From Octopus vulgaris (taxonomy: Eukaryota), in NCBI GenBank assembly GCA_951406725.2, contig OX597820.1, forward strand, positions 69,378,001-69,442,000: 64,000 bases of DNA. The letters run 5' to 3'. Numbering within the stretch: position 1 is the first letter of the stretch; every line of letters begins with the position of its first letter. The notes beneath the pieces were generated by a model. It was not told the DNA's origin and did no database searches. It worked only from the letters and a program-made list of their open reading frames with translations. Positions 11,980 to 51,430 of this stretch are shown here, piece by piece. The position numbers and the translations under genes are program-made.

Positions 11980-13240
<1,261 letters not shown>

Positions 13241-13704: not shown

Positions 13705-13768
<64 letters not shown>

Positions 13769-13854
13769 ATGTGAGGTGTAAGAAATGTAGTATTTCTTAG
13801 ATGCGCATATATATGTATATATATATGTGTGTGCGTGTATATATATGTGTGTGC

Positions 13855-13932
<78 letters not shown>

Positions 13933-15059: not shown

Positions 15060-15093
<34 letters not shown>

Positions 15094-15239
15094 CATGAGG
15101 ATTTCCTTCCTATTATGGTCACTAAGTTTACTCAAAATGAGAGGTCTAATATGTCATATCATCTTTTGAACTCGAAAATAGATGATACGTACAATCTACG
15201 TCTGAAACTGAACTACTACTACAACTACAACAACAACTG

Positions 15240-15306
<67 letters not shown>

Positions 15307-16017: not shown

Positions 16018-16088
<71 letters not shown>

Positions 16089-16284
16089 GTTGTAGTAGTA
16101 GTAGTAGTAGTAGAAGCAGCAGCAGCAGTAATAGTAATAGCAGCAGCAGTAGTAGTAATATTAGTAGCAGCAGCAACAGCCGTAGTAGTAGTATTAGTAT
16201 ATACATATATATACATACATACATACACACACACACGCGCGCGCGCGCGCGCGCACACACACCGACACACAGACACACACACAC

Positions 16285-16335
<51 letters not shown>

Positions 16336-17157: not shown

Positions 17158-17216
<59 letters not shown>

Positions 17217-17837
17217 ATGTATGTATGTATATATATATATATATATACATATATACATATATATATATATACATATATATATACATATATATATACATAT
17301 ATACATATATATTGTGTGTGTGTCTATACATAAATAGAGAGAGAGAGAGAGAGAGAGAGGGATACATGGATGGATGCATGTATCTATGCATGTATGTATG
17401 TATGCACATGCATAAGTTCGCACTTATGCATAAACCTATGTATGCGTGAATATTTTGCCTGTATGTGTATGTGTGTTTGGATTTGTGTGGATGTGTATGG
17501 ATATCTATGTATGTACCTACATATGCATCTATCTACGTGTTATGTGTGCATGCATGTATGTATTTCTCACTTTCAGAATCACCCTTGCAGGCAAATTGTT
17601 AATTGGCACGGCTTGAAATTAATGTTAATTTCAAGGACGTGCTGCGGATGTCATGGAAATCATCCTTTTATGATTGATAACCTTGACAGAAAAGCTTTTC
17701 CTTGTTCACACTTAAAATACACTTTGACCATGCCTTGTCTTCCATAAGTTTCATTTCAAATATGTTAAAATAAAATCTTCGTGAAGACTCCCTCTAAGAA
17801 TCTTATATCATTATTACCATTATTATTATTATTATTA

Positions 17838-17884
<47 letters not shown>

Positions 17885-19247
17885 GCTAGCAATAAAATAC
17901 ATTTATTTACGCATTCATTTGAATCAGCACTGATTTAAACATGGCGTACATGATTTTTAGGAACGACAAACATTAAAGTATAGTATTGTGAATATAGTAG
18001 TTTTACCTTACATTTATCTAATTCATGTTCAAATGTCTTTAAATATAAAAGAACATTAAAATGAAACATCGTTCATTTAATGTATTAGCTGTAACCTAAA
18101 TATTTCTAACTTGAATACTTGAATACTAGCAATTATGGACTTAAGGATGTAATAGAATATTATATTTTAACTGGCTAAATCCAACCATTATATTATATTA
18201 TATTTCCTGTTTCCCGTTTCACTCAACTAAATGTTTGTGCGTGTGTGCATGTGTGAAGAAATGCATATATGTAGCCATACGCGTTCCCACTTTGTTGGTT
18301 GTATATGTGTGTGGATGTGATGTTTTGTGCGTATGTGTGTGTGTGTGTGTGTGTGTGTGCGATTGAACAGACTCAGATAGAATCGCGTGAGGATCACCTG
18401 CCTCTGTAGATAATTCAACAAATTCACACACCCACGTATATATCACAAGTACATACGCCTTCACACATGTGTGTATATATTTGTGCATCCGTGCTTGTGT
18501 GAGTGTATCTATAAGTAACATAAAAATGAGAAATAGAACTTAATATATGACTATATAAAATTTCTGAATATTTTCATATGCGGAATTCTTAGTCTTTGAG
18601 ATGATTTACTAACTTTTCCGCTTACGCTAAATGTGTACGTATATAAGTCCTTATGTATTTGTGCGCGATGGTATGTCTCTGAAAGATATAAACCTCAGCG
18701 AGAAACACGCCGATAAGCCAAGAGCCGAGCAAAACTTCGTGAAATTCATTCCACCAGCGTTACGCCAGACACACCCTTGTCACCCACGTCACTAGAAATG
18801 CAATGAAGCAGTAATTAAACTTTAAAAAAAAAAAACAGAAGAAACCTCCGAACTTAGAACCAATGATGCTTATAATTCACAAAGTATATAATATATAAAA
18901 TAAAATCAAAAATTAAAAATACTATATAAACAAACATTCTGCCATATTTCTTAATTATAATCTGAAAATTTATTGATTTTAAAATTCCTGAATTCAAAGA
19001 TATCCATAGAGAAAATTTAAGTATACGCTTTCTTTATTCGGATATTATTGATGAATAGGTTTCTTAGAGTAAATTAACCTAAGATGTTGTTCATTTGTCT
19101 GATAGTGTAGGTTCCTTGGGAGGCGTTGCCACTGGCTTTTACAGCCTGAAGCTGGACCGATATCAAAAGCACATATGGACTATGCGTGCGTAGGTAACAA
19201 TAGTGATTTCGTGATTAATGTCCTTTATGTGTATGTGTATATATATG

Positions 19248-19291
<44 letters not shown>

Positions 19292-19814
19292 CACACACCA
19301 TACACCCACAAGCATATATATATACACACCACACACATACATATACAAACACATATACATAAATATATTTATATGAATACATAATACGCATAGATATATG
19401 TATATATTTACATATATAAATGTCCCTAAGCCATACAATTTGAGCGTATGCACATGCACACAGCAGCTTTTATGTATGTATGCATGTATGCATATATTTT
19501 TGTATGTATGTATTCAAGTATGCGCAAATTATGTGCTGTGTATTTGGAAACTGCAGATGTTAATATTTCTTATTACCTTCCTGACCTAAATTTCATACAA
19601 AAATGTTAGTTCAGTTAATATTTAATTAAATGCAATATTAACTCATATACCAATCAACGCCCAACCTTGCTTCTTCGGCATATTCTCTTGGTTAATTTTC
19701 ATTATTTCCAAATATTTGTTGACTCTATATTTCGATAACCTCACACTGAAAATATCTATAACAACTATATCTCTACGTTGTTGCATGTACTTCATGTACT
19801 GTTATTAATTATAA

Positions 19815-20065
19815 AGGTGCATGGCCTAAACTAGTGTCTAGTCAGTGGACTTAAGATCGTGAGGTTTTTGGGTTCGATCTATGGACCAGACCACGCGTTG
19901 TGACTTGAAAAATGTACATCTTTTCATTTAGTGGAAAGTGAGCGCCTGTGATCCTTGTTTGTGATTAATCGTGTAACAGACTAGCGTTCAATGCAGGAAA
20001 AATGTCTAGTACACTCATTCGTCTAAACACCTTGCAAAGCTGGGCATCATCCTAACTCAGCTTCC
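19815..20065 (+). mobile_element. Degenerate tRNA-derived SINE (family B-like)
   Basis: ggtgcatggcctaaactagtg...gggttcgatctatggaccagaccacgcgttgtgacttga; tail gtaacagactagcgttcaatgcagg resembles 2166-2195. Confidence 0.5.
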
Positions 20066-20158
20066 CATAGGTTTAAGGTAGATTGCTGTAAATTATAAAG
20101 TAAATACTTTTTCACAGGAGAAATTGAGAAGTAGATATATACACACACACCACGCACG

Positions 20159-20254
<96 letters not shown>

Positions 20255-20635
20255 AACACACACACACATATGGAGTGGGTGGAAATGCGTATATGTGCGT
20301 ATATATATATTTCTGTGTGTATGTATTTCGAATTTTCACTGATTTACCAAGTGATTTGATTGGAGAACCTGTTTTGAGAATGAAGAAATTACATCATAGA
20401 AAGGCCAGTTTCTACATTTTGAGACCTCATAGTTTTCAATTAATTTTAATTCCTTTCTTAACGACGGGAACTCGGTTACTGGAAGTTAGATTCACAAGAA
20501 TTATATTCACTAGAATTATATCAGGGATGAGGTTACAGCGGTACGACGAATATTTATTTTTTATGGTTGAAATAAAAAATGAAAAGTGGGTTTAACAAAT
20601 GTCCTCACAATTCAGGGAACGACGATGGGTCTCTC

Positions 20636-20732
<97 letters not shown>

Positions 20733-20859
20733 CTCTCCACTCGCAAACCTTTTGGTCGGCCCAAAGCCATAGTAGAAGGTACTTGCACAACGTGCCATGC
20801 ACTAAGACGGAACTTGCAACTATGTGGCTGGTAAGCAAGTTTCTTACCACAGACCCACG

Positions 20860-20952
<93 letters not shown>

Positions 20953-22092
20953 CAAATTATCATTAAAATGAAAAGTTACTCAATACTTTTATCTTGTGAA
21001 GTAGCTATTTTTTAGAAGAAACAGTGTGATAGTGGCATCGAAGTTTCATCCTGAAAGCGAGCTGGCAGTATCTCGGAAGTCACTCCCATACCTCACCTCT
21101 TCTTGCATATATATATATATATGTGTGTGTGTGTATAGAAGGAATCATACACTGCTGAACAAACGAATTCTGAGAACGAAATATAGACAGATAATCAGAA
21201 AGAGAAACAATAAGACAAGCAGACAGGCATGCAGAGAAAACGCATAGAGAGTTAGCTAGAAAGATAGATAGACTGAAAGATAGATGCATATATATATATA
21301 TACACACAAACACATACAGACAGAGACAGATAGAATATGTTTGCTTTCCCTGCTTCCTAAATCTTATTGAATATTGGTGGCGAAATATTAGCCACAATGG
21401 TGTATCAGTAAAATTAGCAGCTAGATCCAAGTTAATTGTAACTTCTGACCTGCCAACGGAAGTAATACCATTCAGTAAACTCTAGACGGAAGCCAATTTC
21501 ACCTCTCCATTAACATTCCAATTTGTGAAAGCTTTTATAATTAGAAATCGAAATTCATAACAACAACAACAACAATAGTAATAATAATAATGATATATAA
21601 ATAAATAAATAAATAAGATATAGAAAAGAAATAAATGGAACAAAATAAACTTTAATTTAAGATAACAAACATCATAAAATATAACTCATATATTAAAAGA
21701 AAAACATAAAACAACATACACTCAGAATATATCATCATCATCATTATCATCATCATAATAATAATCATCATAATAATCATCATCATAATTATCATCGTCG
21801 TCGTCATCATCATCATAATCATCATTGGTACTTATTTTATAGCTCCTTGAAATTTATTTTTCACGCTCAGATTTGTATGGAAAATAAAATAAATATATTT
21901 ATATAGCGACAAAAAAAAGCAACAACAACAAAAAAAAACTAAAAGATATATGCAGCATATTTCAAAAACATCTACATAACAACAATATGTATAACACAAC
22001 CACTGGCAACAACAAAACCAACCCACAGAAAGTAATGACATCTATATAAATACATATAGATATAGACACACAGACTGGTAGATAGATAGATA

Positions 22093-22136
<44 letters not shown>

Positions 22137-22254
22137 TATATATACATATATACACATATATTTGTCTATAATATATACATATAGAGATATGTATATTTCT
22201 ATCTCTACATTGTGACTGAGCCAGCAGTGGAATATGAGATACTTTAATACTTTC

Positions 22255-22329
<75 letters not shown>

Positions 22330-22545
22330 AAGTTCACGTGCTGATACCTTTGTTTCTTAAGTCAATTATATTCAGTGTTAGTGTTTGTTAGAATTTTTGT
22401 TGTTACTGTTACCATTTTCTCCCCCACCCGCTAGCTCTTCCCCCACTGCCATTTTCTTGTAATTCACCTTCTTCTTTTCATTTCATTCCTTCTCTCCGTC
22501 TCACCGTCTCTTTCATGCACATCACAGTAATTCCATTCATCTTCA

Positions 22546-23850
<1,305 letters not shown>

Positions 23851-24295
23851 ATGTTGTGATGAAGATGAAGGAGTCGTGAGTTATTGATGGAAGAAAGGGG
23901 AGGAACAGTGGGGGTTAATTAGCATGTTTCATCTGCACAAGTCATATTTTTTCCTCATTACTCAAACACACACACTCGCTCGCAGACAGTCACACACCTA
24001 AATACATACACATAATCATATATATACGCCTATATATGCTTAATAGATACTCATGTTGTTCTCAATACGTGAAAAAAAATGGTATTTTCCAATGAAAGTT
24101 ACTCATTAAAAAAATTAAAATTTAATTAGCGCTATGGCAACAAGGTTTATGTGATGAAAATAGAACGAAATTAAAGAATCTCGAAGCTCTAAGTCAAAAT
24201 AAATACATATATATTGAGGTGACTTGAGAATTAATCTGGAATATCTTAAGATTCGGCGGGTCGGGGTACATACTCTTGTATATGTTTGCATGTGC

Positions 24296-24337
<42 letters not shown>

Positions 24338-24487
24338 GTGTGTGTGTATATATATGTATGTATGCATATATACTAACTATGTATATATATATATAGGTAT
24401 GTATATATATATATATGTACACATACACACATTATATATATATATATATATATATACATATATGTGCATGTGTATATATATATATTA

Positions 24488-24537
<50 letters not shown>

Positions 24538-24961
24538 GTATGTGTGTGTGTGTGTGTAGACGCACACAAAATATTTAGCGATTTTCTGTTTTGTTTGTTT
24601 CCATGTATTTCATTTTGTTCTACGCACAGATGAAATAATGTCATCATAGCAAAAGAAAACAAAACACAAAAAAAAACAAAGAAAAATAACAATGAACGAA
24701 AGAAAGGAAAAGGAAGCTTCTTCCTCTGGAAACATAACAAACAGGCGATAAATAATAAGAAAATGGGATAATAGAAAACACACAATAAAATAAAAATCAT
24801 CTTTGAAGATGTATAAAACGGTTTGGTGCGAGTTTTCGAGTATGATTAATATTATTTGTCATGTTGTCGTTTGGCTCAGATTTGCACCGTGTTCTGTCTA
24901 AATAAACACTACCTTGGTGTTAGGTTAGAATATGATTAATACTGTGTAGATAACGCTAATG

Positions 24962-25007
<46 letters not shown>

Positions 25008-25286
25008 CATGTACATATGCATGTATATATATGTGTGTGTATGTTTGTAAGTATACATACAAAGATATTATAAATATATATATATAAACATATATGTCTC
25101 TTCTGTTTTAATCAGTTATATATGTAAGTAATATAAAAACACGCACAAAAACGCACACAAACACCTACACACACATACACACACACACACACATATTTAC
25201 ATGTAGTAGGTAATGAACACAAAACAGGAGAAAACCAGAAGGACGAAATTTAACAAAGGTGTTATTAGTTTAACGCTTAAGGAAGG

Positions 25287-25317
<31 letters not shown>

Positions 25318-25874
25318 CACGTACACACCCCCATTTATTTCACCGTATTTTTGTGTATGAATACGTGCGCTTGCGCCTGCTTATGTGTGTGTGTGAGTGT
25401 GTATGTGTGTGTGTGTGTATGTGTGCTCGTGATCAAATTAGCAAATCTATTAAGCTGAGACTCACGTAGAACAGATTTAAAAAATTACTTATTGAAATAT
25501 ATATAGAAAATCCTTCAAGAAAAAATGAAAAACAACTAATAAAAGAAATCTAGATAATTAATTAATTACTTTTCTAGTAAAATCTTATAACTTTCCGTTA
25601 AAATCTCATTTTCCTTTTTTAAATTACAAATAAAATTCAAAGAAGTAAATTTTAAAATATCAATAATTTAAAACTATAAAGTGAAATATAAAATGTGAAA
25701 TAAGAAGAAAAAACATACAGTTATGATTAAAAATGGAGTATTTTGAAAAGACGGCTATAAATTCACAGTTTTAGAATGTGAAATATTTATTTATACACAT
25801 AGTGTATTCCTGTTTTCATTGCTACAACAACCTCTTCCTTTTTCATAAATTTTATCCCATTACGTGAAAGGTAT

Positions 25875-26130
25875 TGTGCATCGTCTACTGACCAATCCGC
25901 TTTCGCCATCGGTCTCTAGTCGTCGCATTATCAATATCTTCTGTAAATTTTGTACTGCATATGACTGCGCTGTCATTGGCAAGAGTAATCTATCTTTGAC
26001 GAAGCTCTTTACGGTTTAAAGGGACAATCAAACTTTACTAAGTATGTCCACTCACAAACCAATGATGTTTTAACAAAAATAAGCATTAGTCTTATAAAGG
26101 AATTTAAGAGTAGATTCGCTTTATTCTCAA
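25875..26130 (+). pseudogene. Possible highly degenerate LINE 3' fragment
   Basis: Short translations TDQ...FRHRSLVVALSI resemble the L.HRR.V..LS.F motif downstream of LINE reverse transcriptases; frameshifted and weak. Confidence 0.2.
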
Positions 26131-28006
26131 TTATACAAACTCCGTTGGGCCAGAATTGGTCTTATTTTCTATGGTGTTTCAGTCACTGTGACAAGATTCC
26201 CCCCATCAGCTGGGCGTTTGATAGTTAAATGTATTGAAGCAAAGTGATTTGAAATGTAATGCTGATAGATAGGAATACACTGCCTGGCCTGAGAACTGAA
26301 CTCACGACCATAAGTTCGTGAGCTTAGATACTATATCACATGTTTTCGTGTGTGTGTGTGTGTGTGTGAGTGTGTAGTAACATCGAACCATTCCTACTTA
26401 CCCCCATAAGTAAATCAAATCAAAATGGAGTTCGAAATCTTTGTTTCTCTGTTGCTCATTCAGAGACACATACGACACGGTTGTATGCTTAGGTTCCTTT
26501 CGATATAGTTATCAGGTAATGTGTGTATAGGTTGAATCCACCAAATGTTACTTCAACGGGGAACCGATAAAGTAGCACACATCATCAATTGTCAATTGAC
26601 ATTTGTAGATACCAGTATTAATAAATACTCTAACACTGAAACTATGTGCTTTCTCTAAAAATGGGCTGAGACGAGGAATAGGTTCTATAAGGCTTAAAAT
26701 GCTGAAGCCACGCTGTATGTCAGGACCTACAACTTCATAAAAAGTTGAAGATCCAATGATGGAAGAAGGATATTTTAAAATGTCTAGTGAGAGCTCTGTC
26801 AGGGGATAGTTATTCATATATTTGCTTGAAGCTTGCAAGAGGAGTACGTAATTTCTCTGCTAGAGGGTTTATTAGCACTAATATCTGCAAGTGGCTATTC
26901 CATTAACCAGCGCTTAGTGAAAGAAATATCTGATAGATATATCCAACGGAATCAACTTATACTCACAATACTTATGACTACATCCAAAGCAGCGTCTATA
27001 TACAATACCTGGTAGCTATAACTAATGACTTCTATTGCCTATTGCATAATATTTGATCTCACTCTTATTGATATCAATTGTGATATTGTGATAGAGCAGC
27101 TGTAGCAACACATTTACAATGTCTATTATAAATTGACGCGTATCTTGCCGATGTCAACGTGCCATTGGTCATAATTGTAATCTGGTGAGGCCAAGATTCT
27201 TGGCTGAAGACTCGTGAGTTCTTATTCTGTCGTTAATAAAGTGGTATGCTTTAGGCAAAATACTGAATTCGTATAGCTTCACATACCAGGTATGCGGACA
27301 GCAGGAAAGAGAAGAGAGAAAGAGAGAAAGAGAGAAAGGGAGAGAGAGAAAGAGAGAGAGAGAGGGGAAGAGAGACAGACAGACAGACAAACAGATAGAC
27401 AGAAAGACAGACATATAGAAAGACAGACAGAAGGAGAGAGATAAACATATGGACAAGCAGACAGACAAGGAAAGACAATAGTGGAAGACGATAAAATAAC
27501 GAGACAATTTCCGTGAGCGCGTATGTTTATATATATAACCATAAGCTCAGTTAAGGAGATGTGGTAGGTACGAAATTATTTAATTCTGGTAGAAAGATAT
27601 AACTGAAAGAAACGCAACCAAAACCTCCACCATCAGCAACACCATCGCTACAAAACTCTGCTATCTAAGCTTTGCTTTAAATTAGTTATATGAGAGATAA
27701 GCGAAGAAATATACATTTTTTTCATACACCAAGTCCCAAGCACTCTTGGTATATCTGAATCAAAACAGTGGAAGTATTATATAAACAAGAAAATAATCTG
27801 ATCATTTTTGTTCACAATGGACGTCGTAGGGTGAAGTGAAGATATATTTGTCAACTATGAATGTAACAGATAAGATCAAGTTGTTGTTATTGTCATCGTT
27901 TCTTGACCCTTCAGACAAAGATCTGTTTTGTTTTATTATTTTTTTCTATTTATTTCTGTCCTGCTGAACAACAGACTGCAACTAGACATCTAGATTGCAC
28001 TTCTGA

Positions 28007-28068
<62 letters not shown>

Positions 28069-28073
28069 TTACT

Positions 28074-28160
28074 ACTACAATAATGATCACGATGATGATA
28101 ACATATCTCAACCAGTCTCTTAAATGAAAGGTTTTGCTTGTGATTAATAGAGAAATTATT
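28074..28160 (+). repeat. 87-bp dispersed duplicate of 1531-1617
   Basis: Same sequence as 1531-1617 with one substitution. Confidence 0.9.
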
Positions 28161-29365
28161 AATTCGTTCCAATTTTGTTTTCATCTTGAGGCTTTGGCAT
28201 ATCTTACTTCTTAATCTGTGCTCGCTATTCCTGTTGTTATCGGACCAGACACACACAGCGAAAAAAATAGGAGAGAGAAAGAGAGGAGGGAGAGAGGGAG
28301 AGAGGGAGAAAGAGAAAGACAGTCCACTTCTGTCATTCTGTGTTCGGTGACAGAAATCGCCAATTGTAAAATTTAATCCTTGAACATACTCAAACATTCT
28401 CAATAAGTATTTTGCCTTCAATAGCTGCTTTTTTTCAGTTTTACACTTCGTTCCGGATTGTTTAAATAAGTTTTTATTTAAGATTTTACTTTAGCTGATC
28501 ACCTTCATTCATTACTTTTATCATCATCATTATCATCTGAAGCAAAGGTTTTGCTGTCGAATGCAATCCATTATTATTAGTTGTATTTTTCCCACCCAAC
28601 ATATTTTATTTCACAATAGTTGGCGAATACCTTCTTTATGGAAGTGCGTTTAGTTACCAGTTAAAATCGTATTAGTAATGTATTGTAACCGCATTCCCAA
28701 ACCAGGCACTTTAGCAGTAAGGTATTGTTAGCGCCAAGAAGTGGAAAGTTTGTCCTAGCAAAAGGAGAACAACGTACAATGTAGAGGCCGTTTAATCTTC
28801 ACTTTTATCATTGTGACAATTGTTTAGAGTTATTTGGGATACACACGTTAGCTATTGACAGGAGACAGGAGAAAAACAGTGTGTTTTAATCGTTACTACA
28901 CTCTTCAGCAGGCGTCCTCTTTTTTTTTCTACTCTAAACAACTTAAAGGACAAAAGACAGACAACACCGAATACTTCGTTTTTTTTAAAATCTTTATTCT
29001 ATTTTTTCTTTTCCTTCTTTCTGTCGGTTTTTCTCCTTTTCTTCTTTCGTTCTTTCTTCACTATATATATATAAAAACAAAATACAAGTGTATGGCAGGG
29101 ACAAGGCTATAATCTTTTTAATCTCTTAATGTTTGCCTCAGAAATGAAAACTAATTTGGCCCATCACGGGATACTTGTGTACTTCGAATTATTCTATCAA
29201 TTCAGAAACATTCTAGCTTGCTTTTGTATTGCTTTCTGTTAACCTGCCGCTTAATATACTTCCTTACCATCGTGAGCCTCTGATACGGTATTTATTTCCG
29301 TGTTATGCTGTGTTACTTATAAGAGAAAAACCTGCAGGGATAGCACGGGTAGGGGTGTATTTAGA

Positions 29366-29443
<78 letters not shown>

Positions 29444-30189
29444 CAGCAGCAGCAGCAGCAGCAGTAGTATTATAGTTATTGTTTAACTGTTCAAGTAGAC
29501 AAATGGCGAAAGACATTCTATCCATGACAATCCTTTTCTTTCATTTACTCAAGATTTCGTTTTAAATAGTCACGACATAATTTTATGCAACCAGAATTAC
29601 CAGTACATCGTTAGCTTTGTTTTTAAGATCGTAAGAAGGGAGATCTGACTGCTTCCCATACAACTTTAAGCAACGGTACTTGGCTCGTCGACGATATATA
29701 ATTATTGGGTTGTTACTGTTGTTGTTGTTGTTGTTGTTGCTAAGATAATTTTTAAACGCAATCACTTCTGGTCGACAGACATGGATAGGATCACTGCTAT
29801 TCCGAGCATAAAACTCATCTTTTTTAGGGGTATACAGAAGGAAATTATTTGATGTGTTCTTCCCTGTTTCTTCTCTTTTTCTTTTAAAGACGTATGCAAG
29901 GAAATTGGGGGATGTTTAGTTTTTATTTGTAGCCGGACGAACGAACGCCAGAGAAGGGTCGCTTGTTGACACGTGATAACATCAATAGGGACAACAAAGA
30001 TGCTGGTTATTATGGTGATGATAAGCAGTTTCATATGACTCCTGTTCTAAAAAGTTTTGAGATAAGGTTTCTATCCAACAAGAAAGCCTTTATGTAGTCG
30101 GTCGACTAAGCTAGAAATGACAGCTAAATATTCCACAACTTAATTCTAGTGTCTAAAAATCGCGAGAGTGGTTATGATAGTAAGCACTA

Positions 30190-30320
30190 TATCCCATAGG
30201 TTTACTCGATTAGGACCCATTTGGGGTGACAAATTCAAATCGGGGCTATAGTAACAGACACCTGCCCAAGGTACCTCACCCTGGCGACTAAAACCATCTG
30301 CTTGCAAGGCGAAATTTTGA
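30190..30320 (-). mobile_element. SINE family A-like diverged fragment
   Basis: ggggctatagtaacagacacctgcccaaggtacctcac is the reverse complement of the gcaccttgggcaagtgtcttctactatagcc core. Confidence 0.55.
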
Positions 30321-30751
30321 TGATAGGACAGCCTGATCAAAACTGACCCGGGGCTAAACAACAACAACTTCAGTAACAGAAATAGAACTAAAATAGATAT
30401 ATTAGTGACTGACTTGATTCTGTGGTGTATGTGTTAGCGGCTTTGCATTTACTAATGATATTTCATGGCTGGATGCCGCTACTCAATCATTTCTTGTAAA
30501 TTGTAGCAAATCTGACATGGTTAGAACAGTAATAAAGAGACCTTTGATGAAGTAATATATGAGTAATTCTTTCAGACAACTGTAATGAAAGATGGGGACG
30601 AGCCGAAATATCTGTTAACAATGATGGCGGTAACACCACCAACATCAATGCCACTGTAGTGTTTCTTTTATACGGAGACATAAACTATATATATATATAT
30701 AACTCTACACACAAATGTAGAATATATATATGTATATGTATCTATGTATGT

Positions 30752-30817
<66 letters not shown>

Positions 30818-30965
30818 GTATATGCATATGTAACACGTACGCATATGTTCCAAACGTATTTTCGCGTGTGTATATGCATATACAACCGTAAGTACAAACA
30901 TGTATACATATACTTGTCTGTCTCTACACTTGCACTTTATCTATCTATCTATCTATCAGTCTATA

Positions 30966-31046
<81 letters not shown>

Positions 31047-31726
31047 GTCTATATGTCTGTCTATCTCTCTATCTGTTTCCAAATAAACCTGTAGCTATTC
31101 CTATCTATCTGGATAAATTTATGGTACAATCAATTGCAAATATGGCCGACACAATAGCTCGCGGTATTACATTGTCAGTTTAGATCCAGTCCATGTCGAT
31201 TTTGTCTCCCATCATCCTTCCCAAACAGACAAAATAGGTATGTAGGTCGATAATATAGACATAAACCTTTGCTGGCGGTGTCCCAATATGGCTGCAATCC
31301 AGTAATTGAAACTAATCAATGAACAGAAATAAGCAAGTCTTATTTTGCCTTGTTGCAAATATTTATTTTGTTTGCCTTAATTTAATGTATAAGTTGAACA
31401 TCTTAATATTATAACTTCAGCCAAAACAATCTTCAGCTCTGTGTGTGTGTATGTATGTGTGTTTGTGTCGAAATACTTGGAAATTTAGGGTAAAAACGGT
31501 ATCATGGTAACTAAAGATTGTGAGTAAAATCTGCATTTGCTGCCTCTATCCAATCCTAGTAGAACGTGGCTTTCTTTCGCAACTTCTGAAATCAATTGAA
31601 TGAGTACATGAAATGCTAGAGTGGTGTCGATATAAAACAAACGTGAAAGAGTTGCCCACAATCACTAATTATGGTCGCAGTGCAAAAATACCCCCACCAT
31701 AGTGACCTATGTAGACATACATACAT

Positions 31727-31775
<49 letters not shown>

Positions 31776-31941
31776 TTATATATTATATATATTATATATA
31801 TAATCATGTATATATATGTATATGCTTATATGAGCATATGTCTACAGAGAGAGAGAGAGAGAGAAAGAAAGAAAGAGATAGGAGAGAAAGAGAGACCCAC
31901 ATCTATGTATACATACACCGAACACAACCAACTCACACACA

Positions 31942-32080
31942 TGCCGAAGTCGACTTTGCCTTTCATCCTTTCGCGGTCGATAAATTAAGTACCAGTTGCG
32001 TACTGGGGTCGATCTAATTGACTGGCCCCTTTCCCGCCACCAAAATTTCAGGCATTGTACCTAGAGTAGAAAAGATTATT
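31942..32080 (+). mobile_element. SINE family C (Deu/Nin-like central domain), 3' half
   Basis: gccgaagtcgactttgcctttcatcctttcgcggtcgataaattaagtaccagttgcgtactggggtcgatctaattgactgg...ctagagtagaaaagattatt. The gcctttcatcct..ggtcgataaa..agtaccag core resembles a widely conserved SINE domain; superfamily name is from memory. Confidence 0.75.
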
Positions 32081-32972
32081 TACATAATATATTACACTTT
32101 GTGGAATAGAAGAAGAGTGATTAAGATACTTCTAGATTAATCAAACATTTATCTTACATTCTCTTCCTCTTCCCCTCCCTCTGTCTCTTTCTCTGACATA
32201 CATATTCACGCACGCACACACACACACATATTCTTAGAAGGAGTGTTGATTTTTATGGATAGCACAGTCTGGTCCCCAAAGAGCACTTATATATTAGACG
32301 AAGCAAGCAAACAAGCCTTTTAGAATCGCGTGACAAACACGATCTGCTGGGATCAATAATATCAGTTAATATCTCAGCAAGTAATTCACCCTATATTAGC
32401 AGCAAGGACCAGTATTGTAACTGACGAAGGAACTTGACATTTTCAATTCTCTCTCGTTCTTTGATAACTACAAAAGGAACTGATTGCAATTCGTATCTCC
32501 CTGGTAATGTATAAGGCTATGATTTAGTCCAACCATGTTCTGAATCAAACCTCCAATTTATGTTTGAAGAATCCAATTTAAGAAGTGCTCGCTTGAGATA
32601 ATAACCTTACTTTAGCCTACAATAATCAAATTAGAAGTGGTCAGTGTATTTTACGCTTCTAACTTGACCACTTTTAGTCAACAATGCGATTGATAAAATA
32701 ATTTCCATTTCAGATAATATTCGATTAACTTTAAAGACATAATGCTAAACCATGTTTTGGCTTTCATCAAAAAATATAATGGATCATTTTTCTGTTTTAT
32801 TTTATTTTATTATATTTTACATTTTGTTTCCACGGCTTTGTTTTAAGATTCTAAATCGCAAACATCAAGCAATATTTTTATTCTATTTGCATGTATCACA
32901 GTGATCGGAATATGTCTATAATTGACTATTTCATCACAAATAAGCACGTAGATGCAGAAATATTTATGTGAA

Positions 32973-33076
32973 GTGGCTGTGAGGCGCAGGCATGGCTGTG
33001 AGGCGCAGGCCTGGCTGTGAGGCGCAGGCATAGCTGTGAGGTGCAGGCATGGCTGTGAGGCGTAGGCATGGCTGTG
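32973..33076 (+). repeat. 19-bp minisatellite made from the SINE family A 5' end, five full units plus a partial
   Basis: Unit AGGCGCAGGCATGGCTGTG starts at 32982, 33001, 33020, 33039 and 33058, each with at most one substitution; the last unit runs into the SINE body. Confidence 0.9.
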
Positions 33077-33211
33077 TGGTAAGAAATTTGCTTCTGAAAC
33101 ACATGGTCCCAGTTTCATTCCCACTGTGTGCTACGTTGAGCAATTATATTCTACTACAGCCACGGACCGTCCAAAGTATTGTGAATGGATTTGGGATACA
33201 GAAAGTAAAAA

Positions 33212-33250
<39 letters not shown>

Positions 33251-33350
33251 TCAAAAAACATAAATACTGTGGTTGATTTGTTCAACTAATATTCTTCAAG
33301 GCGGTGCCCCAGCATGGCCGCAGGCAAATGATCGGAACAAGTAAAGGATA
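33058..33350 (+). mobile_element. SINE family A, diverged copy
   Basis: Head ggcgtaggcatggctgtgtggtaagaa, body gtgaatggatttgg, (TA)n, tail aaggcggtgccccagcatggccgcagg; aligns by eye to 33766-34190. Confidence 0.75.
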
Positions 33351-33381
33351 CAAGCTCAGCTTAGTTGTATAATACACACAT

Positions 33382-33436
<55 letters not shown>

Positions 33437-33472
33437 CGCACACACACATGCATGTATGCACAAATACAAATA

Positions 33473-33507
<35 letters not shown>

Positions 33508-33513
33508 GTGTGT

Positions 33514-33625
33514 GTGGAGGTGAAATGGCCCAGTGGTTAGGGCAGTAGACTTGCGGTCGTAGGTACGTGCTTTCGATTCCCAGACCGGGCGTTGTGAGAG
33601 TTTATTGAGCAAACACGCGTAAAAT
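33514..33625 (+). mobile_element. tRNA-derived SINE (family B) head
   Basis: gtggaggtgaaatggcccagtggttagggcagtagacttgcggtcgtagg...tttcgattcccagaccgggcgttgt, highly similar to 2035-2115. Confidence 0.8.
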
Positions 33626-33765
33626 TCCCTATATATATGTATTATTAAATATGACACCATTCAACTACGCTTCGGAATTAAGTCCTTCTTCGGAAAATGA
33701 AAAATAAAAGGCTAGGAAATAAGAAAAATGGTGAATGAAAAAAAAGATAAATATAAAGATACACA

Positions 33766-34190
33766 GGCGCAGGAGTGGCTGTATGGTAAGCGGCTTTGCT
33801 TACCAACTACATGGTTCCGGGTTCACTCCCCCTGCGTGGAACCTTGGGCAAGTGTTTTCTACTATAGCCTCGGGTCGACTAAAGCCTTGTGAGTGGATTT
33901 GGTAGACGGAAACTGGAAGAAGCCCGTCGCATATATATATGCATGTATATATATATATATACACGCACACATATATGAGTATTTGTGTGTTTGTGTGTCT
34001 GTGTTTGTCCCTCCATCATCGCTTGACAACCGATGTTGGTATGCTTAAGTCACAGTAACTTAGCAGTTTGGTAAAGAGAGCGACAGAATAAGTACTATGC
34101 TTACAAAAAATAAGAATTAGGTTCGATTTGTCCGACTAAAGGTGGTGCTCAAGCGTGGCCGCAGTCAAATGACTGGAGCAAGTAAAATAA
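33766..34190 (+). mobile_element. Near full-length tRNA-derived SINE (family A, octopus-type) with internal microsatellite
   Basis: Head GGCGCAGGAGTGGCTGTATGGTAAG (A box) ...CCGGGTTCACTCCC (B box); body ACTATAGCCTCGGGTCGAC...GGATTTGGTAGACGGAAACTG; internal (TA)/(TG) tract; tail GGTGCTCAAGCGTGGCCGCAGTCAAATGACTG. Several homologous copies occur in this window. Confidence 0.85.
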
Positions 34191-36424
34191 TACGAAAAGA
34201 AAACTCCGTGTGGAAAATGGCATTGCAGTAATTCATCATGGATTTTTCCTCGCGTCTCCTCACATCTTCGTCCCCCTTACCTACATATGCCCATATTTGG
34301 GAATGAGTGTGTCTTGAGACTAGAGGTTTATCATGTGACAGACGGATATAAAGATAAAAGATAGATAAGCATCTATAGCTTCATAAATAGCAAAATAGAT
34401 ATAATTGCGTATATGTGCTTATATCTATGTTTGTATGAGTTTGTGTGCATATAAACTAAAAGATAAATATATCGATATGTAGATATTAACTAGATAGATA
34501 TCTTTGTCTGTGAGCTAGATAGGTATCTTTGTCTGGGCGCTCACGAAAGCCACAAAGCTTGAATACTACAGAAGTCAAATAAGTAGTTAATTTAATACAT
34601 CAAATACGATTCGATATATTACTTACACGTTGCATCTATAATTTACACACATATTTTAACCATATGATATATAAGCTACGTTATCAAAATAGTTGCCGTT
34701 GAATTGAGAGTCTTAGATGACTGTTGCTAATATGATGTGCGCAGGTAAGAAAGGTTTGTAATTAATTTGAAGGAAAATAAAATCGATTTCCAAAGTAATT
34801 AATTGGTTCCCTTTGATTAAGTATAGGTCTGTATGGTTTTAGCCGGTGGGAATCGTAACGTAACTTAACGACCAAAAGCACATTAGCGGTAAAAGTGAAA
34901 TGGAAAGGCTTCGCAAGAGAATTGAAACCAAGTTTAATTTTAAGTTTTCTGGAAGTTTACCTCGAAACGAGAGACAATCTCTTAGTTTATGAGGAGAAAA
35001 TTTCGTGGCTTTCAAACAAAATGTGTTACGCCTACTCATTTTTATCACGAAGTTAGCGACTTATAATCAAATGAAGTGATGGTCACCCCGTTTTATTCTC
35101 TCATAAATGATATTTTGGGATGACAATGCCTAGAATAACCTTTAGTTAAGGGACCACGGCTGACCCCGTGCGAAAGAGCAGCAAAAACACATGAATCTTG
35201 TTTTGACTACAACCGTTTAAAAACCCTACTACAGTAACAATTTATAGCATTAAATGCTCAATGCGCATTTATTAACATTACAGTGCTAATGGGGCTTCTA
35301 TATCTTACAGCGGTCAACGTAACTTTCACATATCAGGTATTCAGTATTAAAAGGGTCACTTATAGTTTTAATTTTGCACCAGGGTAAGACATGGGAATTA
35401 GATCAGATCATATACTTTTTAAAACCAAGAATACTGTATGGCTGATGGAGGGTTTCTTTACTATATGCACTCTCTTTCAGCTGTCTCTCATAAAATGAAA
35501 GATTTATATTAAAATCTCCTATATTATTTACATCCATTCATATAAGTTAGGCACGCATTGTACGCCTTGCATTCAAACAGGAAACGTCACTATTCTGTAT
35601 ATATGTCTCCTTTAAGTATGGCAATTTCGAATAAAATAAAACAAAATAATAGTAAAAAAAAATTTATTCTACATAGTTCGATTTCTGAACCACTTTGTTC
35701 AATGTGTTTTAGTCATATAAGTCTAGCCTGATGCGAATATATATTACTTTTAGAACTCTATGTTCACGGCAGTTTCTTGCACAAAAAAATTAACTTTCTG
35801 TATGAATATATTCCGGAAAACATTTTCAAATATTTTTCTATTTAGCTTTTACACACTGCCTCAGTTACATCTCTCTTTGTACCTCGGTTGTATTAGACCC
35901 ATATTCTTTATTTTGAAACCTTATTCTAAACGTTTCGCTTAGTGCTTTGTGTTATATACCTAGTACAGTTCTACAAAACTATTTAGTCTCAGATGAGGTC
36001 AAACCAATTGCAACATACGGTTTGTAGTTCTCCACAACCAGCTTCCAAGTTACACATAACAAATACAGACATTTTTTATGTCTTTTTTTTTGCTTTCTTT
36101 TTGTAATTTTTTTCTGCTGTTTGCCTACTTAACCAACCAAAGACTGTAAACCATTATTTCCATTCCCATCTCCTATACTTCTTCGAAAAGGTTACAACTT
36201 TTTTTAGAACATACTGTCTGCACACACACACACATACACCCCCCACACACACATACACACACGCGCGTACACAAACACACACACATATACATACATATAC
36301 ACGCATATATATATATATATATATACGAACATATATATATATATATACTGAGTAAAAATGGTTATGCTCTTTTCCTTGCCTTACCCCCTGTCCTGCCCCC
36401 TCTTTCAATGTGTGTGTGCGTGTG

Positions 36425-36478
<54 letters not shown>

Positions 36479-36949
36479 CGTGTGTGTGTGTGTGTGTGTG
36501 CGTGTGTGTGTGTTATTGTGACATTTTTTCAGTTATTCTTCGCCTTCTCGATTCAATGTATCGAGAATGTTACAAATAGTATCTCTGGTGGAGAGAGAGA
36601 GAGAGAGAGAGAGCAGTCGGTTTGCAAATGTCACCGAATGTCTCCTACCGTTGTTACATTTTTACCGAGTTTGAAGGAAGAAAATAACAAAAATACAAAA
36701 CAGCAAAGAAATCATACAAAAAAATGATATACACACAATAAATAAATAAATAGATAGCTAAATAAATAAGAAAGCTGCCAGTCTTCCGAGAAGACACTAA
36801 CATCTGACAATGTTGTATAACCAGTAGCCAATCAATCGAAGTTCAACTCGGTGAAAAAACATTAACGAATCAAATTCAGACTGAGTTTCCGAAACTATTC
36901 ATCGGACCTTTTTTAACTAACCCAAACTCCAACAATATCCAAAGAACGT

Positions 36950-36999
<50 letters not shown>

Positions 37000-37081
37000 G
37001 CTACTGCTGCTGCTGCTATTACTGCTACTGCTGCTGCTGCTGGTAATACTACTACTACTACTACTACTACTTCTTCTTCTT

Positions 37082-37133
<52 letters not shown>

Positions 37134-37334
37134 AACTACTACTACTGCTACAACTACTACTTTATTTGTCTCCAAGGACGCGCATACTTTAGAAAACTTG
37201 TCAAAAAAGGGCTACAACTCGGGAGGTTATGCATAAATATGTGTGTGGTGAGGTATACTGTTGTGTATGTGTGTGTGGTCGCGTGGTTCATAAAAATTAA
37301 ATTATTTTATGATTTATCATTGTTTATATTTAGA

Positions 37335-37402
37335 GATTACAAATATGTCGGACACCAACATCTTTTAAGTGCTTAGGGCCTCTGTGGGTTTAATCCGGCC
37401 CT
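37335..37402. mobile_element. Possible hAT-type MITE end
   Basis: Ends in ttaatccggccctg (reverse complement CAGGGCCGGATTAA), a common hAT-like terminus; partner end not found. Confidence 0.3.
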
Positions 37403-37489
37403 GCTTAGAATCATAGGTTGTTGGTATTGCCAACAATGATCAAATGTGAGGAGAGACTCCATGTCTTCCACATCATTGCTTTCCTTAAT

Positions 37490-37571
37490 TTCTTTTATTC
37501 TCTTTTATTCTTTTTTATTCTTATATGTGTTTCAGTCATTTGACTGCGGCCATGCTGGAGCACCGCCTTTA
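37490..37571 (-). mobile_element. SINE family A 3' tail fragment
   Basis: Plus-strand tgtttcagtcatttgactgcggccatgctggagcaccgccttta is the reverse complement of the family tail; preceded by tcttttattc units. Confidence 0.7.
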
Positions 37572-38126
37572 TTTTTCCTCCCCTTTCAAGTAAATATATC
37601 CATCAGGTCATATATTAGTAATGATTGTCTCAAACTTTTGGTTTCTGACAAATGCATATACTTCAGGGTAGTAGGTGTTTTGAGTCTGAGCTCGTTTTCT
37701 TTGATTTTCTCTCTATTTCTCTCTTTTAACTTCCCTGCATTTGTCCAGTTTCCTTCTTATTCTCACCGAGAATGTTGGGAAGTATAGTGGTGGGGTAACT
37801 TTGGCCGGTCGTGTGATTGAAGTGGAGATTCCTTGGTGTTTAGCGGCCTATGGCTCGTCGGTCTCTATGACTGACGACACCGAAAATAAAGCGACAATTT
37901 TTACCTCTGCTCTGGTTATCCTTGTTTTCAGGAAATTATGGCAGCAAGAGCCACATCCATGGTTTTCGTCTGAGACACTGCTGTTATTGATGCCGTTGCT
38001 CTTCTCTGCTACAATAGAGATTTTTCATCTTTTTTCCAATTCTGAATAAAAGGCCCTGAAGTGATTCTGTCTGACTGCATGTCTCGATCTCACTCTCTCT
38101 CTCTCTCTCTCGCACACACACACGCA

Positions 38127-38159
<33 letters not shown>

Positions 38160-38187
38160 TCCTGCATGTATGTGAGTGTCCCTGTGC

Positions 38188-38221
<34 letters not shown>

Positions 38222-38316
38222 CTATAGAAATTTGAAAAACCTAGCTGAATGATTGATTGACCGAATGATCGGTTAAGCAGCCGATTAGTTAATTGGCTAA
38301 ACGGTTAAGCAGCTTG

Positions 38317-38361
<45 letters not shown>

Positions 38362-39098
38362 TGACATGAGATAGAACTGGTCGTTTATTATTTGGTGTAA
38401 TGACCCTCTCGATATAGAACAAAATTTTATGGATTTTTCCTTTAATACTCTACGTTTCTAGAAATAATTTTATTGGCATCAGCTTGAGTCACCAAATATA
38501 TTTGACGTTTAATTAATGTATTAGTTTTGTGATAGTTTCCTTCTCTGCCGTTTCTCATTTCCGAATTTCATGAAAAGCGTTCAATAAACAATGAATTCTT
38601 TCTTTGTTATAAGGCCAGATATTTTACTTATTTTATTTTATCGAAACGTCTACCATTTTATTTCAACGAAACACGAAATAAGCTCCTTGTCTTTTATTTA
38701 TTTATTTGATAGGCTAAATTTTAGTAAACTGATACCATACAAGTTTCTGTTATTGGTATTATTAGTAATTATTTCACTTCATTTACGGCATTAAAGTTCA
38801 TAGAAAAACTATACGTCTTTGTATCTTCAATTCAGAAATCTTATCTCACTTAAATCAATTGAAAATATTACCCGTAAATGGTTGGTATTTTTTTAATGCA
38901 AGACAAAGAAATTTACTCTGATATGATGTCTGGTTTCTTGGACTGAATAGATAATCTATTTTTATAGTTAGGATTATAAAACAACCGTTATCTTGCACTA
39001 GTACACTGCAGGAAGGCATTTTACCAGCCTCACCAAAACCATTTTTTACACACTAATTCACTCTTCTAATTCTAAGCTGTTCAGTTCTTCATCCTAAT

Positions 39099-39187
<89 letters not shown>

Positions 39188-39758
39188 CATGTGTGTATAC
39201 ACACGCATACACACACACATATACATAATGTCTGTGTATAGATATGTGTTTATATATGTATAAAACATCCGATTCTTAAATATTGCAGTTGTTAGAAAGT
39301 CTCCCACTAAGAGTTTGTATCTTGAGCATTATGTTTGAGGGAAAAAGTACCTCTTAGAAGTGTTCTGTATCCTAAATAGAAATACGGTGCCATGCAGCTA
39401 AAATACTGAGCTGAAAAAATTCATCTATTATGTGAGATTTTATATATAATTAATACAGAAATTTATCCTGTATTTTGTAACATGTATCTAAAACCTACTA
39501 GCAAGGGAGATAATTGTAATTAGACCATTGTAACGAATTAACATAATGATGGTGGTACAGCTGGTGTTTAAATCAATGATTGTAATGAAAGTAATGATAA
39601 GATAATGTGGTTGATATTAAAGAAGGTCTAAAGCATTTTTTCTTTCACATTGGTCTGCATTTCACCGAAACTTCAGTAGGATTCTTAACAACAGTCTTTA
39701 TATATACTTATATACACTCAAGCGTACATACACGTGCATATGTATATATGTGTATATA

Positions 39759-39803
<45 letters not shown>

Positions 39804-39852
39804 TGTGTGTGCGTGTAAACGTATGCATATATATATATATATATATATATAT

Positions 39853-40150
39853 AACGGGAAGCTTTATGAAAATAAACAAAAGACGAAGGCAGGTGGAAAA
39901 CAAACGAACAATTGTATTAGTATGGCGCTCAGGAAATATAAATAAAACAAGTCTTTAACGTTTCGAGCCTACGCTCTTCAACAGAAAGATACACAGAGAG
40001 AGAAAAACACAGAAAGAAGGAGAGAAAAAAATGCGTGCAGTAGCTAACGAATCAACATGGCGATCTGATTTCGGCCAGAGGTCAAAGATCAAACATGAGA
40101 CGCGAGAGCGAAATAAGGGAGATAATAGGGTTGATAGGGGTTGAGGGACC
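39853..40150 (-). mobile_element. Penelope-like repeat, copy 2 (longest)
   Basis: Plus-strand aaaataaacaaaagacgaaggcaggtgg...tattagtatggcgctcagg...gtctttaacgtttcgagcctacgctcttcaacagaaaga...gtagctaacga is the reverse complement of 3972-4170. Confidence 0.65.
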
Positions 40151-40504
40151 ATAAAAGTGCGTGGGAGGGGTCTGGATGTATGTATGTATAGGGTTGGTGT
40201 ATGTATTAGTATGTATAAGGGTGTGTGTGTGTATGAGAGAGTATTAGTGCGTAAGATTGGTCTGGACGTGCGTATGTATGGGGTTGGTGTATGTATTAGT
40301 ATGTATTAGTATGTATTAGTACGTATTGGTATAGGAATCATCTCAACGATTATTTCAAGTTGAATATTGTTACTGTTTTACAATTTTGTTAATTATTACC
40401 AACATAACCGCCCCCACAACGCCCTTTTTATTAAACCTCCCACCATTAATTCCTTCAGATTAATCATACCATTCTTTTCTATATTTTTGGTCGCTCACTG
40501 GCAA

Positions 40505-40565
40505 AATCCAGTGGAAGATTCCGGAAACTACATTACTGGGGAACACAACACAGTAATACGTAAAG
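40505..40565 (+). CDS. TFAP2: AP-2 short linker exon (equivalent to vertebrate exon 3); 5' boundary uncertain
   Basis: Reads NPVEDSGNYITGEHNTVIRK+G followed by a consensus donor AAAG|GTGAGT (40566-40571), phase 1. Resembles vertebrate HVEDPGINIPDQTVIKK|G and [20 protein letters not shown]|G (recalled). Pyrimidine tract at 40471-40488. The phase-0 boundary is preceded by CAA, not CAG; the nearest AG (40510-40511) is out of phase. Confidence 0.8.
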
Positions 40566-40762
40566 GTGAGTTTACTATAATATCTATCATAATCTTCATG
40601 AATCTACCTTTTACTTACCTTCTCCATCTCTCTTAAGCCTCCTCCTCCCCTCCTCTCCTTCTTGACCTCTTCCTCCTTCTTTACCTGCTCCCCTCCTCCT
40701 CCTTCGCATTCTTTTTCTTCTTCTTCTTCTTCTTCTTTCTATTCTATGTTTTCATCATGCTA

Positions 40763-42990: not shown

Positions 42991-45340
42991 TAGCTATGAT
43001 TTTCAACCAGCAGAATTGTATTAAACCACTATTTGTAATGAAATTTAAGAGATGCTTTGGATAGTATAAACAAGATACTAAATGCTTTGTAGTGTTTAGT
43101 TTCGTGTTTTTTGATCCAGTGTTTGTTATATTCTGACAGGAACATCTTCGTCTTCTTTAGGAGACATGAAAATATTTACCAGCATATTTCTGCACATAGT
43201 TCCTTTGTATATAGTCTCTACAAGGATCAGTCTTCCTTACAATAGAGAATACATAGCGTTAAAGTAGTTAAAATTATGGTCAACTAAACATGTATATAAT
43301 AAGAGAATATGGTCTTTAGGTCTGGTCATTGAAATTTCAATGAATCTCCTTTCAGATGCTGTTGGCATTCCTGAGCCAATGTACTAAAAAAGTACAAATG
43401 CCATCACATAGATTCTGTGTACCATACTGTATTATATTCGACTGTAGTAAATATGTGGTAAGGCGTCTTGAATGAAGATCATATTGGTCTAGGATGATGG
43501 TGAAAACATAATGATGATATGTAATTAGTATTTTCACCATGTGGCGAGAGTAAATAATGAAAAATAGGTTCTATTAAGTCTTTGCCTTCGATTGCGTCTA
43601 TACTAAATGCGCATTTTACATAAATGACTTGCTCTTGGGTTGAAAATATATGGACTCCATTATCATTATTCATGAATTATTCGACTGAATTTGCAAATAT
43701 TACCGGGGGTGATTTGGTCTTTTATTCCTCTGGGATTTGATTAAATGAGTACCAGTAATATACAAAGGTAAGTTTAAGTCACCATCTCCCTAGAAAATGA
43801 GTAACGTAACAATGTTAAAATTTATAGTATAATTTAATTAATCAGGGCATTTTATTATGAAGAAGTTATTTTTCATTACATATATACATTCTTTTACATC
43901 GCTTACATTTGTATATATATATATATGCAAATATGCATTTGTGTGGATGTGTATGTGTGGTAATTTGAGGCACATGAGCCTTATTAGATACAAATAAATT
44001 CGTTTAATCAAGGTAACTAATTAGATATTAGTTGGGGCCTATTAGAAATGATAAAAAAATAATGGAAGCAATAAATCTTGAATATACAAATCTAAAGGAA
44101 ATATGTATATATGTACCTTACTACTCTCTGTAAGGCACATATACCAATATTCTGAAATGCCGTAACTACAGTGCTTCTATCCCATTTAAATCTATATCAT
44201 TTTTTGATATAAATTTGTATTTTCTTATTTAAACTAATAGAGAAATCTCAAACTTTATGTTATGAATATGTGAGAAACTAATATTATTAAAATTATTATT
44301 ATTACTATATATTATTATAATAATTATCGTTATGATTATTCTTATTAATATTATTATTATCTTCATTATTAAAATTATTATTATTCCATATATATATATA
44401 TTACTCTAGTGAAGAGATTTGAGTGCTTAAAAGTAGCTTTATATCTCTGTTGGAACCATCTCTTCTATTTTTCTAATGGTCTTGGCAGAGTTATACACTT
44501 CACAACTTCCTATTTTCTTCCTCCAGATATATATTCTGAGGTTCCATGGCTATGTAAGTAATCACTATTAACACTCTTACGTGTAATAGTTATTTAATTT
44601 TTCGATAGGGAAACGAATGCACCCTATTCACTTGCCTTCAGCATATTACTGGTACTTAAATTTATGGTCAGAGTGAAAGGAAAGATTCGTTCGATGTCAG
44701 TAGAATTTTAATAATACATTTTATTTAACTTCATTTTTACGTAGTTGATATGCTTATTGTATTAATTATACTGCATACACTTTGTAATATTCAGAGAAAG
44801 GATACTTGTTACTGTATTGAATAATAAATCGACTGATATATGTTGAGCCCAGATTTGCATCAAACAATGATTAGACCTATTGTATTTAGGGCCTGAAGTT
44901 ATTAAGTCGTATGATATTCAGGTCTCTCCTAAGACCATCAGCAATGTGAGTAAATTTATTACTCCTGCATATCGAATATAAACATATCGCCAGGAAGTTC
45001 TCACTTATGATATAGCTCTCGCTATTTCGTATTATATATAAATTCTATTATGTACAATGCCATCTCTGAGCAACAGAGTGAAATCGAGATCCATATTCAA
45101 TGTATGGAATTAGTATTATAGACAGACATGTTATGTACAGTTTGTGTATTTCTAATATTACTCACAAAACAGTGTACAAACTGCTAAATATGCAACATTA
45201 TCCTGCAGTATTCATAATTTCATATTTTATCTAAACGGTATACCATCATATATCTGAAACATTTATTTCTATGTATTTGTGTTTATATATAAATATATAT
45301 GTGTATGAGTGTTTGAGTATGTGTGATGTATTACCTAAAG

Positions 45341-51418: not shown

Positions 51419-51430
51419 TAGTAATAATAT

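Follow-up and report, generated by a model that had tools for sequence, protein, structure and literature searches.

The AP-2 locus

The window, i.e. the whole stretch of 64,000 nucleotides analysed here (G000:C7:69378001-69442000 of a 2.8-Gb genome), contains on its forward strand part of an AP-2 (TFAP2) transcription factor gene. Exon 2 (11432..11914), located by tblastn of octopus AP-2 proteins, encodes the proline-rich activation region, and its translation is 100% identical to the Octopus vulgaris AP-2 model P0001. Beyond the window, at a distance of 5.6-36 kb, the contig carries four above-cut-off matches to PF03299, likewise on the forward strand. All four belong to one AP-2 locus, whose domain-coding exons are located there.

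Exon 2 ends in phase 0 at 11914, directly before a GT, as already stated in a first-pass annotation of this DNA, and its 3' end is matched by the loose ends of RNA contigs. The 5' splice site of intron 2 (11915..11922, forward strand) is a U2-type GT. Intron 2 (11915..40489, forward strand) has a length of 28,575 nt and runs from this GT to a TG, as judged from the junction in three RNA-type contigs. It is followed by exon 3 (40490..40565, forward strand), which comprises 76 nt (25 codons and 1 base) and encodes a linker ahead of the DNA-binding region. This exon is supported by the RNA contigs and by the transcript-type proteins P0005, P0079, P0081 and P0082, and its sequence occurs as a single copy in the genome. 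The 5' splice site of exon 3 (40566..40571, forward strand) is a canonical GT in phase 1, according to both contigs and sequence.

Several further features of the gene were observed. A cassette exon of 27 nt with canonical AG and GT (44527..44553, forward strand) is present in annotated octopod models (O. vulgaris, O. sinensis, O. bimaculoides, Argonauta) and is skipped in the three RNA contigs. The acceptor of exon 4 is a tandem CAG-CAG (L001:1427-1433, G000:C7 near 69447515). Forms with and without one Ala exist at this place in cephalopods and many other animals, and the three RNA contigs take the upstream AG. At 11906-11908 the window reads GTA (Val), where all three RNA contigs and all other cephalopod proteins compared have Gly. 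The responsible letter, T11907 (G in the RNA contigs), lies 7 nt ahead of the end of exon 2 and is private to the window. Exon-2 words were found at 1.00 in one run only, possibly the source of the assembly, vs 0.94 in 19 other runs, and the Val variant probably reflects an allele in the sequenced animal. Two or more alternative first exons are common to cephalopod AP-2 proteins (P0001, P0003, P0005, P0081). Their peptides were searched for in the window and neither was found, so these exons are located upstream of it. An open frame of 115 codons at 51428-51772 resembles by eye what we take to be the C-terminal endonuclease end of a non-LTR retrotransposon.

The 3' splice site of intron 2

The first clue to an unusual junction came from proteins. 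In the O. bimaculoides RefSeq proteins P0002 and P0004, GPQ is followed directly by VAHWQNPVED, and the same GPQ-VAHWQ join occurs in four full or near-full Logan proteins (P0005, P0079, P0081, P0082). VAHWQ is encoded by 40490-40504, that is by the 15 bases upstream of 40505, and a TG stands directly before it.

Four of the 24 listed runs were compared over 40336-40635, one of DNA type (X2) and three of RNA type (X7, X9, X10). X7 and X10 are derived from organism A in two studies, X9 from organism B in a third. The type RNA is a guess for these runs; we took the sequences, which are contigs and not reads, as transcripts since two introns are skipped exactly. Each RNA-type run contributed one contig of 1468-1892 bases (depth 75.5 for X7, 106.3 for X10 and 78.3 for X9), which spans 40489-40565, no more and no less, and shows 0 differences there. 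Beyond these limits, the loose ends match the end of exon 2 on the upstream side and the start of exon 4 on the downstream side. Exon 2 (to 11914) is thus joined to 40490, after the TG at 40488..40489 (forward strand), in all three contigs, which stem from three studies. The exon start at 40505 assumed in the first-pass annotation lies 15 nt further downstream and is not the one used in these contigs. The position of the junction is ambiguous by 1 nt: the G at the end of exon 2 may be swapped for G40489, and the intron can be read as GT...TG or as GG...TT. We chose GT...TG because it retains a normal GT donor. The DNA-type contig of X2, whose study is not the one that may have supplied the assembly, is identical to the window over 40336-40635 (0 differences in 300 bases).

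Since exon 3 starts after a TG, intron 2 is, with little doubt, a GT-TG intron. The site shows a pyrimidine at -3, a purine at +1 and a U2-type GT donor. We also considered a U12-type intron, comparing donor and branch-point motifs by inspection with the U12 consensus, and found no match.

The phase-1 donor of exon 3 and the phase-0 end of exon 2 require an exon length of 1 modulo 3. The four AGs at 40457, 40510, 40516 and 40552 would result in exons of 107, 54, 48 and 12 nt, all out of frame, and hence no in-frame AG acceptor exists between 40457 and 40553. The upstream AG (40457..40458, forward strand), 31 nt ahead of the TG, leads to a stop at 40561-40563 and is used in the patched models P0001, P0077 and P0086. 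The first AG after the pyrimidine tract (40510..40511, forward strand) lies 22 nt past the TG and is a candidate partner in a TG-AG tandem; joining there leads to a premature TAA (40554..40556, forward strand). The first-pass annotation had described both AGs as out of frame, with the same stop for the downstream one, and the sequence agrees. The second downstream AG (40516..40517, forward strand), 28 nt past the TG, is in the same frame as the first and runs into the same TAA. It is forced by Glu-Asp codons: 100% of synonymous recodings retained an AG no more than 28 nt from the TG. As the protein sequence itself imposes such an AG, the presence of a partner is no sign of selection.

Because all nearby AGs are out of frame, the TG is likely the only productive acceptor for full-length AP-2 protein. 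No AG-spliced form was found in the three RNA-type contigs, in which rare variants are dropped and for which such a product would carry a premature stop. Of the earlier proposal that full-length AP-2 depends on an unusual 3' splice site, the dependence itself stands, given the missing in-frame AG and the use of the TG; the part assigned to RNA editing does not.

Proposed mechanism and alternative readings

We favour, at a probability of about 60%, a reading in which the GT donor at 11915 is joined to the TG at 40488-40489 with the latter working as part of a TG-AG tandem. Recruitment of the U2 spliceosome would fall to the out-of-frame AG 22 nt further on, and ligation would take place at the TG. 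Three features reported for human TG acceptors in the accessible text of PMC2374985 (Szafranski et al.) are present here, i.e. an AG within 28 nt, which these acceptors always had, a pyrimidine at -3 and a purine at +1. The same source proposes that the AG defines the intron early and that the TG is picked at the second step.

A loose motif scan suggests a branch point at 40460..40464 (forward strand), near A40463, 26 nt before the intron end. The polypyrimidine tract adjoining the TG (40467..40487, forward strand) contains 80% pyrimidine and 60% T over positions -23 to -4, vs 50% and 20% for the tract upstream of the AG at 40510. This AG is 47 nt from the candidate A40463, compared with 26 nt for the TG. 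The candidate branch point and the T-rich tract would therefore put the TG at the usual distance, and with the AG 47 nt away inside a predicted stem the second step would be biased towards the TG. The AG-spliced product, with its stop at 40554, would probably be degraded and so be under-represented in mRNA.

The stem in question is a predicted hairpin of 7 bp with a loop of 6 nt (40495..40514, forward strand). The first-pass annotation had described a CACTGG/CCAGTG stem burying the frameshifting AG. Indeed, 40496-40501 is the reverse complement of 40508-40513 with 6 nt in between, and pair probabilities in the predicted fold of 40496-40513 are 0.94-1.0. One G-U pair extends the stem, and a weaker lower stem (40484-40492 with 40517-40527) is predicted to cover the TG, too. 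The fold of the extended region 40480-40530 reached -14.6 kcal/mol (z = -2.79), with 2 of 200 shuffles equally stable. When exon 3 was subjected to 5000 dinucleotide shuffles, a perfect 6-bp stem with a loop of 3-8 nt appeared in 3.7% of them, compared with 7.6% for the region 40470-40530. Among 2000 synonymous recodings, 2.9-4.7% had a 6-bp Watson-Crick stem at this place, or 13-15% counting G-U pairs. The regions for these statistics were picked after the stem had been seen, and the rarity of the hairpin in these models is suggestive, not strong. The TG itself is also paired in the predicted fold (unpaired probability 0.04 or less), which weighs against a selective hiding of the AG. A second hairpin of seven A-U pairs is predicted at 40445-40464; the candidate branch-point motif is paired in it, as is part of the upstream AG.

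Alternatively, the TG of the same GT-TG intron might be a constitutive acceptor independent of any AG, defined by the branch point and the strong T tract alone. The AGs around it would then never be used, and the hairpin would be incidental or only protective. We regard this as a possible but clearly less likely explanation. The TG form is the only one in all three contigs, and the tract upstream of the TG is the most T-rich among the candidates scored (60% T). Furthermore, 24% of the human non-canonical sites of all types found in PMC4176328, as far as its available part goes, are constitutive. On the other hand, decay and contig assembly would both conceal an AG product. In the accessible text of PMC2374985, TG acceptors always occur beside a used AG, and cited mutants with AG changed to TG never splice at the TG. 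Similarly, FlyBase records a similar alternative splice for 22 of the 23 fly GT-TG introns treated in the part of PMC4528330 at hand.

A special case of the tandem would be a regulated switch, in which the choice between TG and AG depends on tissue, stage or temperature and the hairpin controls the dose of AP-2 via nonsense-mediated decay. In stability, the hairpin exceeds about 96-99% of shuffles or recodings, and the ten translated codons ahead of the TG do not differ between three Octopus species. Tissue-specific TG-AG tandems are known in humans, and in TSPYL2 the TG is coupled to a premature stop (PMC2374985; PMC4176328, both for the portions available). However, the AG isoform was not seen in the three contigs and the predicted stem is fully paired from 10 to 37 °C. 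A switch is therefore rather improbable in our view. In its thermal form it was rejected: the unchanged stem predicts none in the range of the animal.

An artefact is very improbable, whether an assembly error or allele masking an AG, a further copy of the gene or undetected microexons. The private letter T11907 demonstrates that individual variants occur in this sequence. Against this, the independent DNA run X2 is identical, which speaks against the G>A error or allele at 40504 previously considered, as well as against an A>T assembly error. The acceptor is non-AG in the assemblies of two other species, and there is one genomic copy of the exon 3 stretch and one AP-2 locus. A microexon within the 28.6-kb intron had also been suggested, but at least seven ordered AG-GT pieces would be needed to build the first 22 bases of exon 3. 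The longest AG-x-GY piece has 6 nt, leading to 7 or 9 pieces, and the longest other exact match to these 22 bases has 9 nt. The filler exons of the annotated models (29933-30066 for O. vulgaris, 28678-28721 for O. sinensis) were rejected, too: three species have three different fillers. No RNA contig compared at 40336-40635 extends upstream of 40489 into a filler, as judged by the loose ends. The O. sinensis filler begins at an intronic ATG and loses the activation region.

The weakest explanation is the A-to-I editing of CAA at 40502-40504 into an acceptor for 40505, as put forward in the first-pass annotation. The CAA is present, 40505 agrees with the inferred ancestral exon boundary (see below), coleoid cephalopods edit their RNA heavily, and ADAR2 self-editing is a precedent for an AA-to-AI acceptor; yet 40490-40504 is exonic, A40504 reads A and not G in all three spliced contigs and is unpaired in every predicted fold containing it (probability 1.0), and no cephalopod protein compared lacks exactly VAHWQ. 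This reading is thereby refuted for the main transcript and extremely improbable overall. The first-pass annotation itself had found no longer-range partner strand. Our search of the window gave the same result, the best antisense matches being AT-rich and at most 13 nt long, and the best duplex for 40495-40515 reached -22.6 vs -38.3 kcal/mol for a perfect partner. The CAA is a Gln codon within exon 3, unedited in the three contigs.

The junction in other species and in known systems

In the read-through models of O. vulgaris (P0001), O. sinensis (P0077) and an older one of O. bimaculoides (P0086), VAH is preceded by Leu. No Leu codon ends in AG, and the acceptor is therefore non-AG in three separate assemblies. 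For O. sinensis and O. bimaculoides this is read from the translated models; the TG itself is known from this genome and X2 only. At the protein level, the ten codons preceding VAH are identical in the three Octopus species. Each of the three models reaches the out-of-frame AG at 40457 via a different upstream filler exon, as a predictor does when a TG is forbidden. The models for O. vulgaris, O. sinensis and one for O. bimaculoides thereby patch the frame with an unsupported exon, and two of them lose the activation region. This fits the report, in the available part of the TOGA2 preprint (10.64898/2026.06.30.735536), that gene predictors miss TG acceptors.

P0005, from a more distant relative with 97% identity over exon 2, shows the same protein join GPQ-VAHWQ. 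In the Argonauta hians model P0003, exon 3 begins three codons later, at Trp, without VAH; this start could be a patch made by the predictor or a real in-frame AG in that lineage. A search with short proteins for cephalopod genomic DNA beyond Octopus yielded no candidate, and all nine pattern matches in metagenomes were chance matches without an AP-2 continuation.

For a linker alignment, 35 proteins were hand-picked from 148, leaving out redundant isoforms, entries lacking the motifs and most tick, mite and echinoderm entries. The five extra codons VAHWQ (40490..40504, forward strand), ending in CAA, occur in this alignment only in cephalopod proteins. Between two acidic motifs, three cephalopod proteins have a linker of 10 residues, whereas that of the Argonauta model has 7. 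Of the 31 proteins from outside the cephalopods, 21 have 5 residues there and nine have 3, 4 or 6, one being unmatched. Several of the tick, mite and echinoderm entries left out have longer linkers of their own, and those of ticks and echinoderms indicate that the linker region of AP-2 tolerates insertions. In the snail read-through model P0020, exon 2 ends at Gln, two residues before the second motif. This end corresponds to octopus 40505, which is thus probably the ancestral boundary of exon 3. An ancestral acceptor is likely to have been located at 40503-40504, the CAA being a former CAG (synonymous Gln). Cephalopods would have taken 15 more bases (five codons) into exon 3, whereby the old AG became part of the Gln codon CAA.

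Taken further, coleoids may have lost the ancestral AG of AP-2 exon 3. Their sole AP-2 gene would then depend on the TG, either with no working AG or with one that is hidden in the hairpin, triggers decay and meters the dose. This extension is tentative, and we consider it clearly less probable than not. If it is true, the TG dependence of coleoids would be a natural example, conserved in evolution, of a TG 3' splice site that is obligatory. Rare as they are, TG acceptors have been described as optional beside a working AG, whereas the one AP-2 locus found in this genome needs the TG for full-length protein. The site is thus a compact natural setting for testing if a TG can do without an AG partner and if structure within the exon guides the second splicing step. 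The annotation is corrected as well, for the models of O. vulgaris and O. sinensis and for one of O. bimaculoides. We found no published report of this junction in the open-access literature on AP-2 or on cephalopods and non-canonical splicing; the correct join is already contained in two O. bimaculoides RefSeq proteins, with no comment visible. The GT-TG class itself is known; the octopus case differs in that no AG yields protein, which makes the TG obligatory in the one AP-2 locus detected.

In the genome, the self-editing site of ADAR2 likewise lacks an AG in its acceptor region and lies close to a predicted stem. There, AA is turned into AI, whereas the octopus junction is at a TG and the candidate adenosine, which is unpaired and unedited, lies within the exon.

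GT-TG introns form a rare but established class, described for 36 human genes in the accessible text of PMC2374985. The tandems of GNAS intron 3, RYK intron 7 and SH3D19 intron 6 treated there resemble the octopus site in the GT donor, the TG after a pyrimidine tract, the pyrimidine at -3, the purine at +1, an AG within 28 nt (22 nt in octopus, 21 nt in SH3D19) and perhaps a conserved flank. The three human TGs are alternatives beside a used AG, whereas in octopus every nearby AG is out of frame. A dominant use of TG is known from the portions of the literature at hand, e.g. for PCGF2 (0.99 in placenta), RYK (0.77) and fly bifid. Intron 6 of Drosophila bifid also belongs to an invertebrate developmental transcription-factor gene, with the TG as the most used acceptor (PMC4528330, available part). 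In contrast to the alternative splices recorded for nearly all fly GT-TG introns (22 of 23), the AP-2 contigs of octopus exhibit the TG form only. AP-2 had no match in the 12 supplementary files of that paper which were searched. As far as the accessible part of PMC4176328 goes, TSPYL2 is alike in that picking TG or AG determines whether the protein stays intact or meets a premature stop. The roles of the two sites are swapped: the stop comes with the TG in TSPYL2 but would come with the AG in octopus AP-2.
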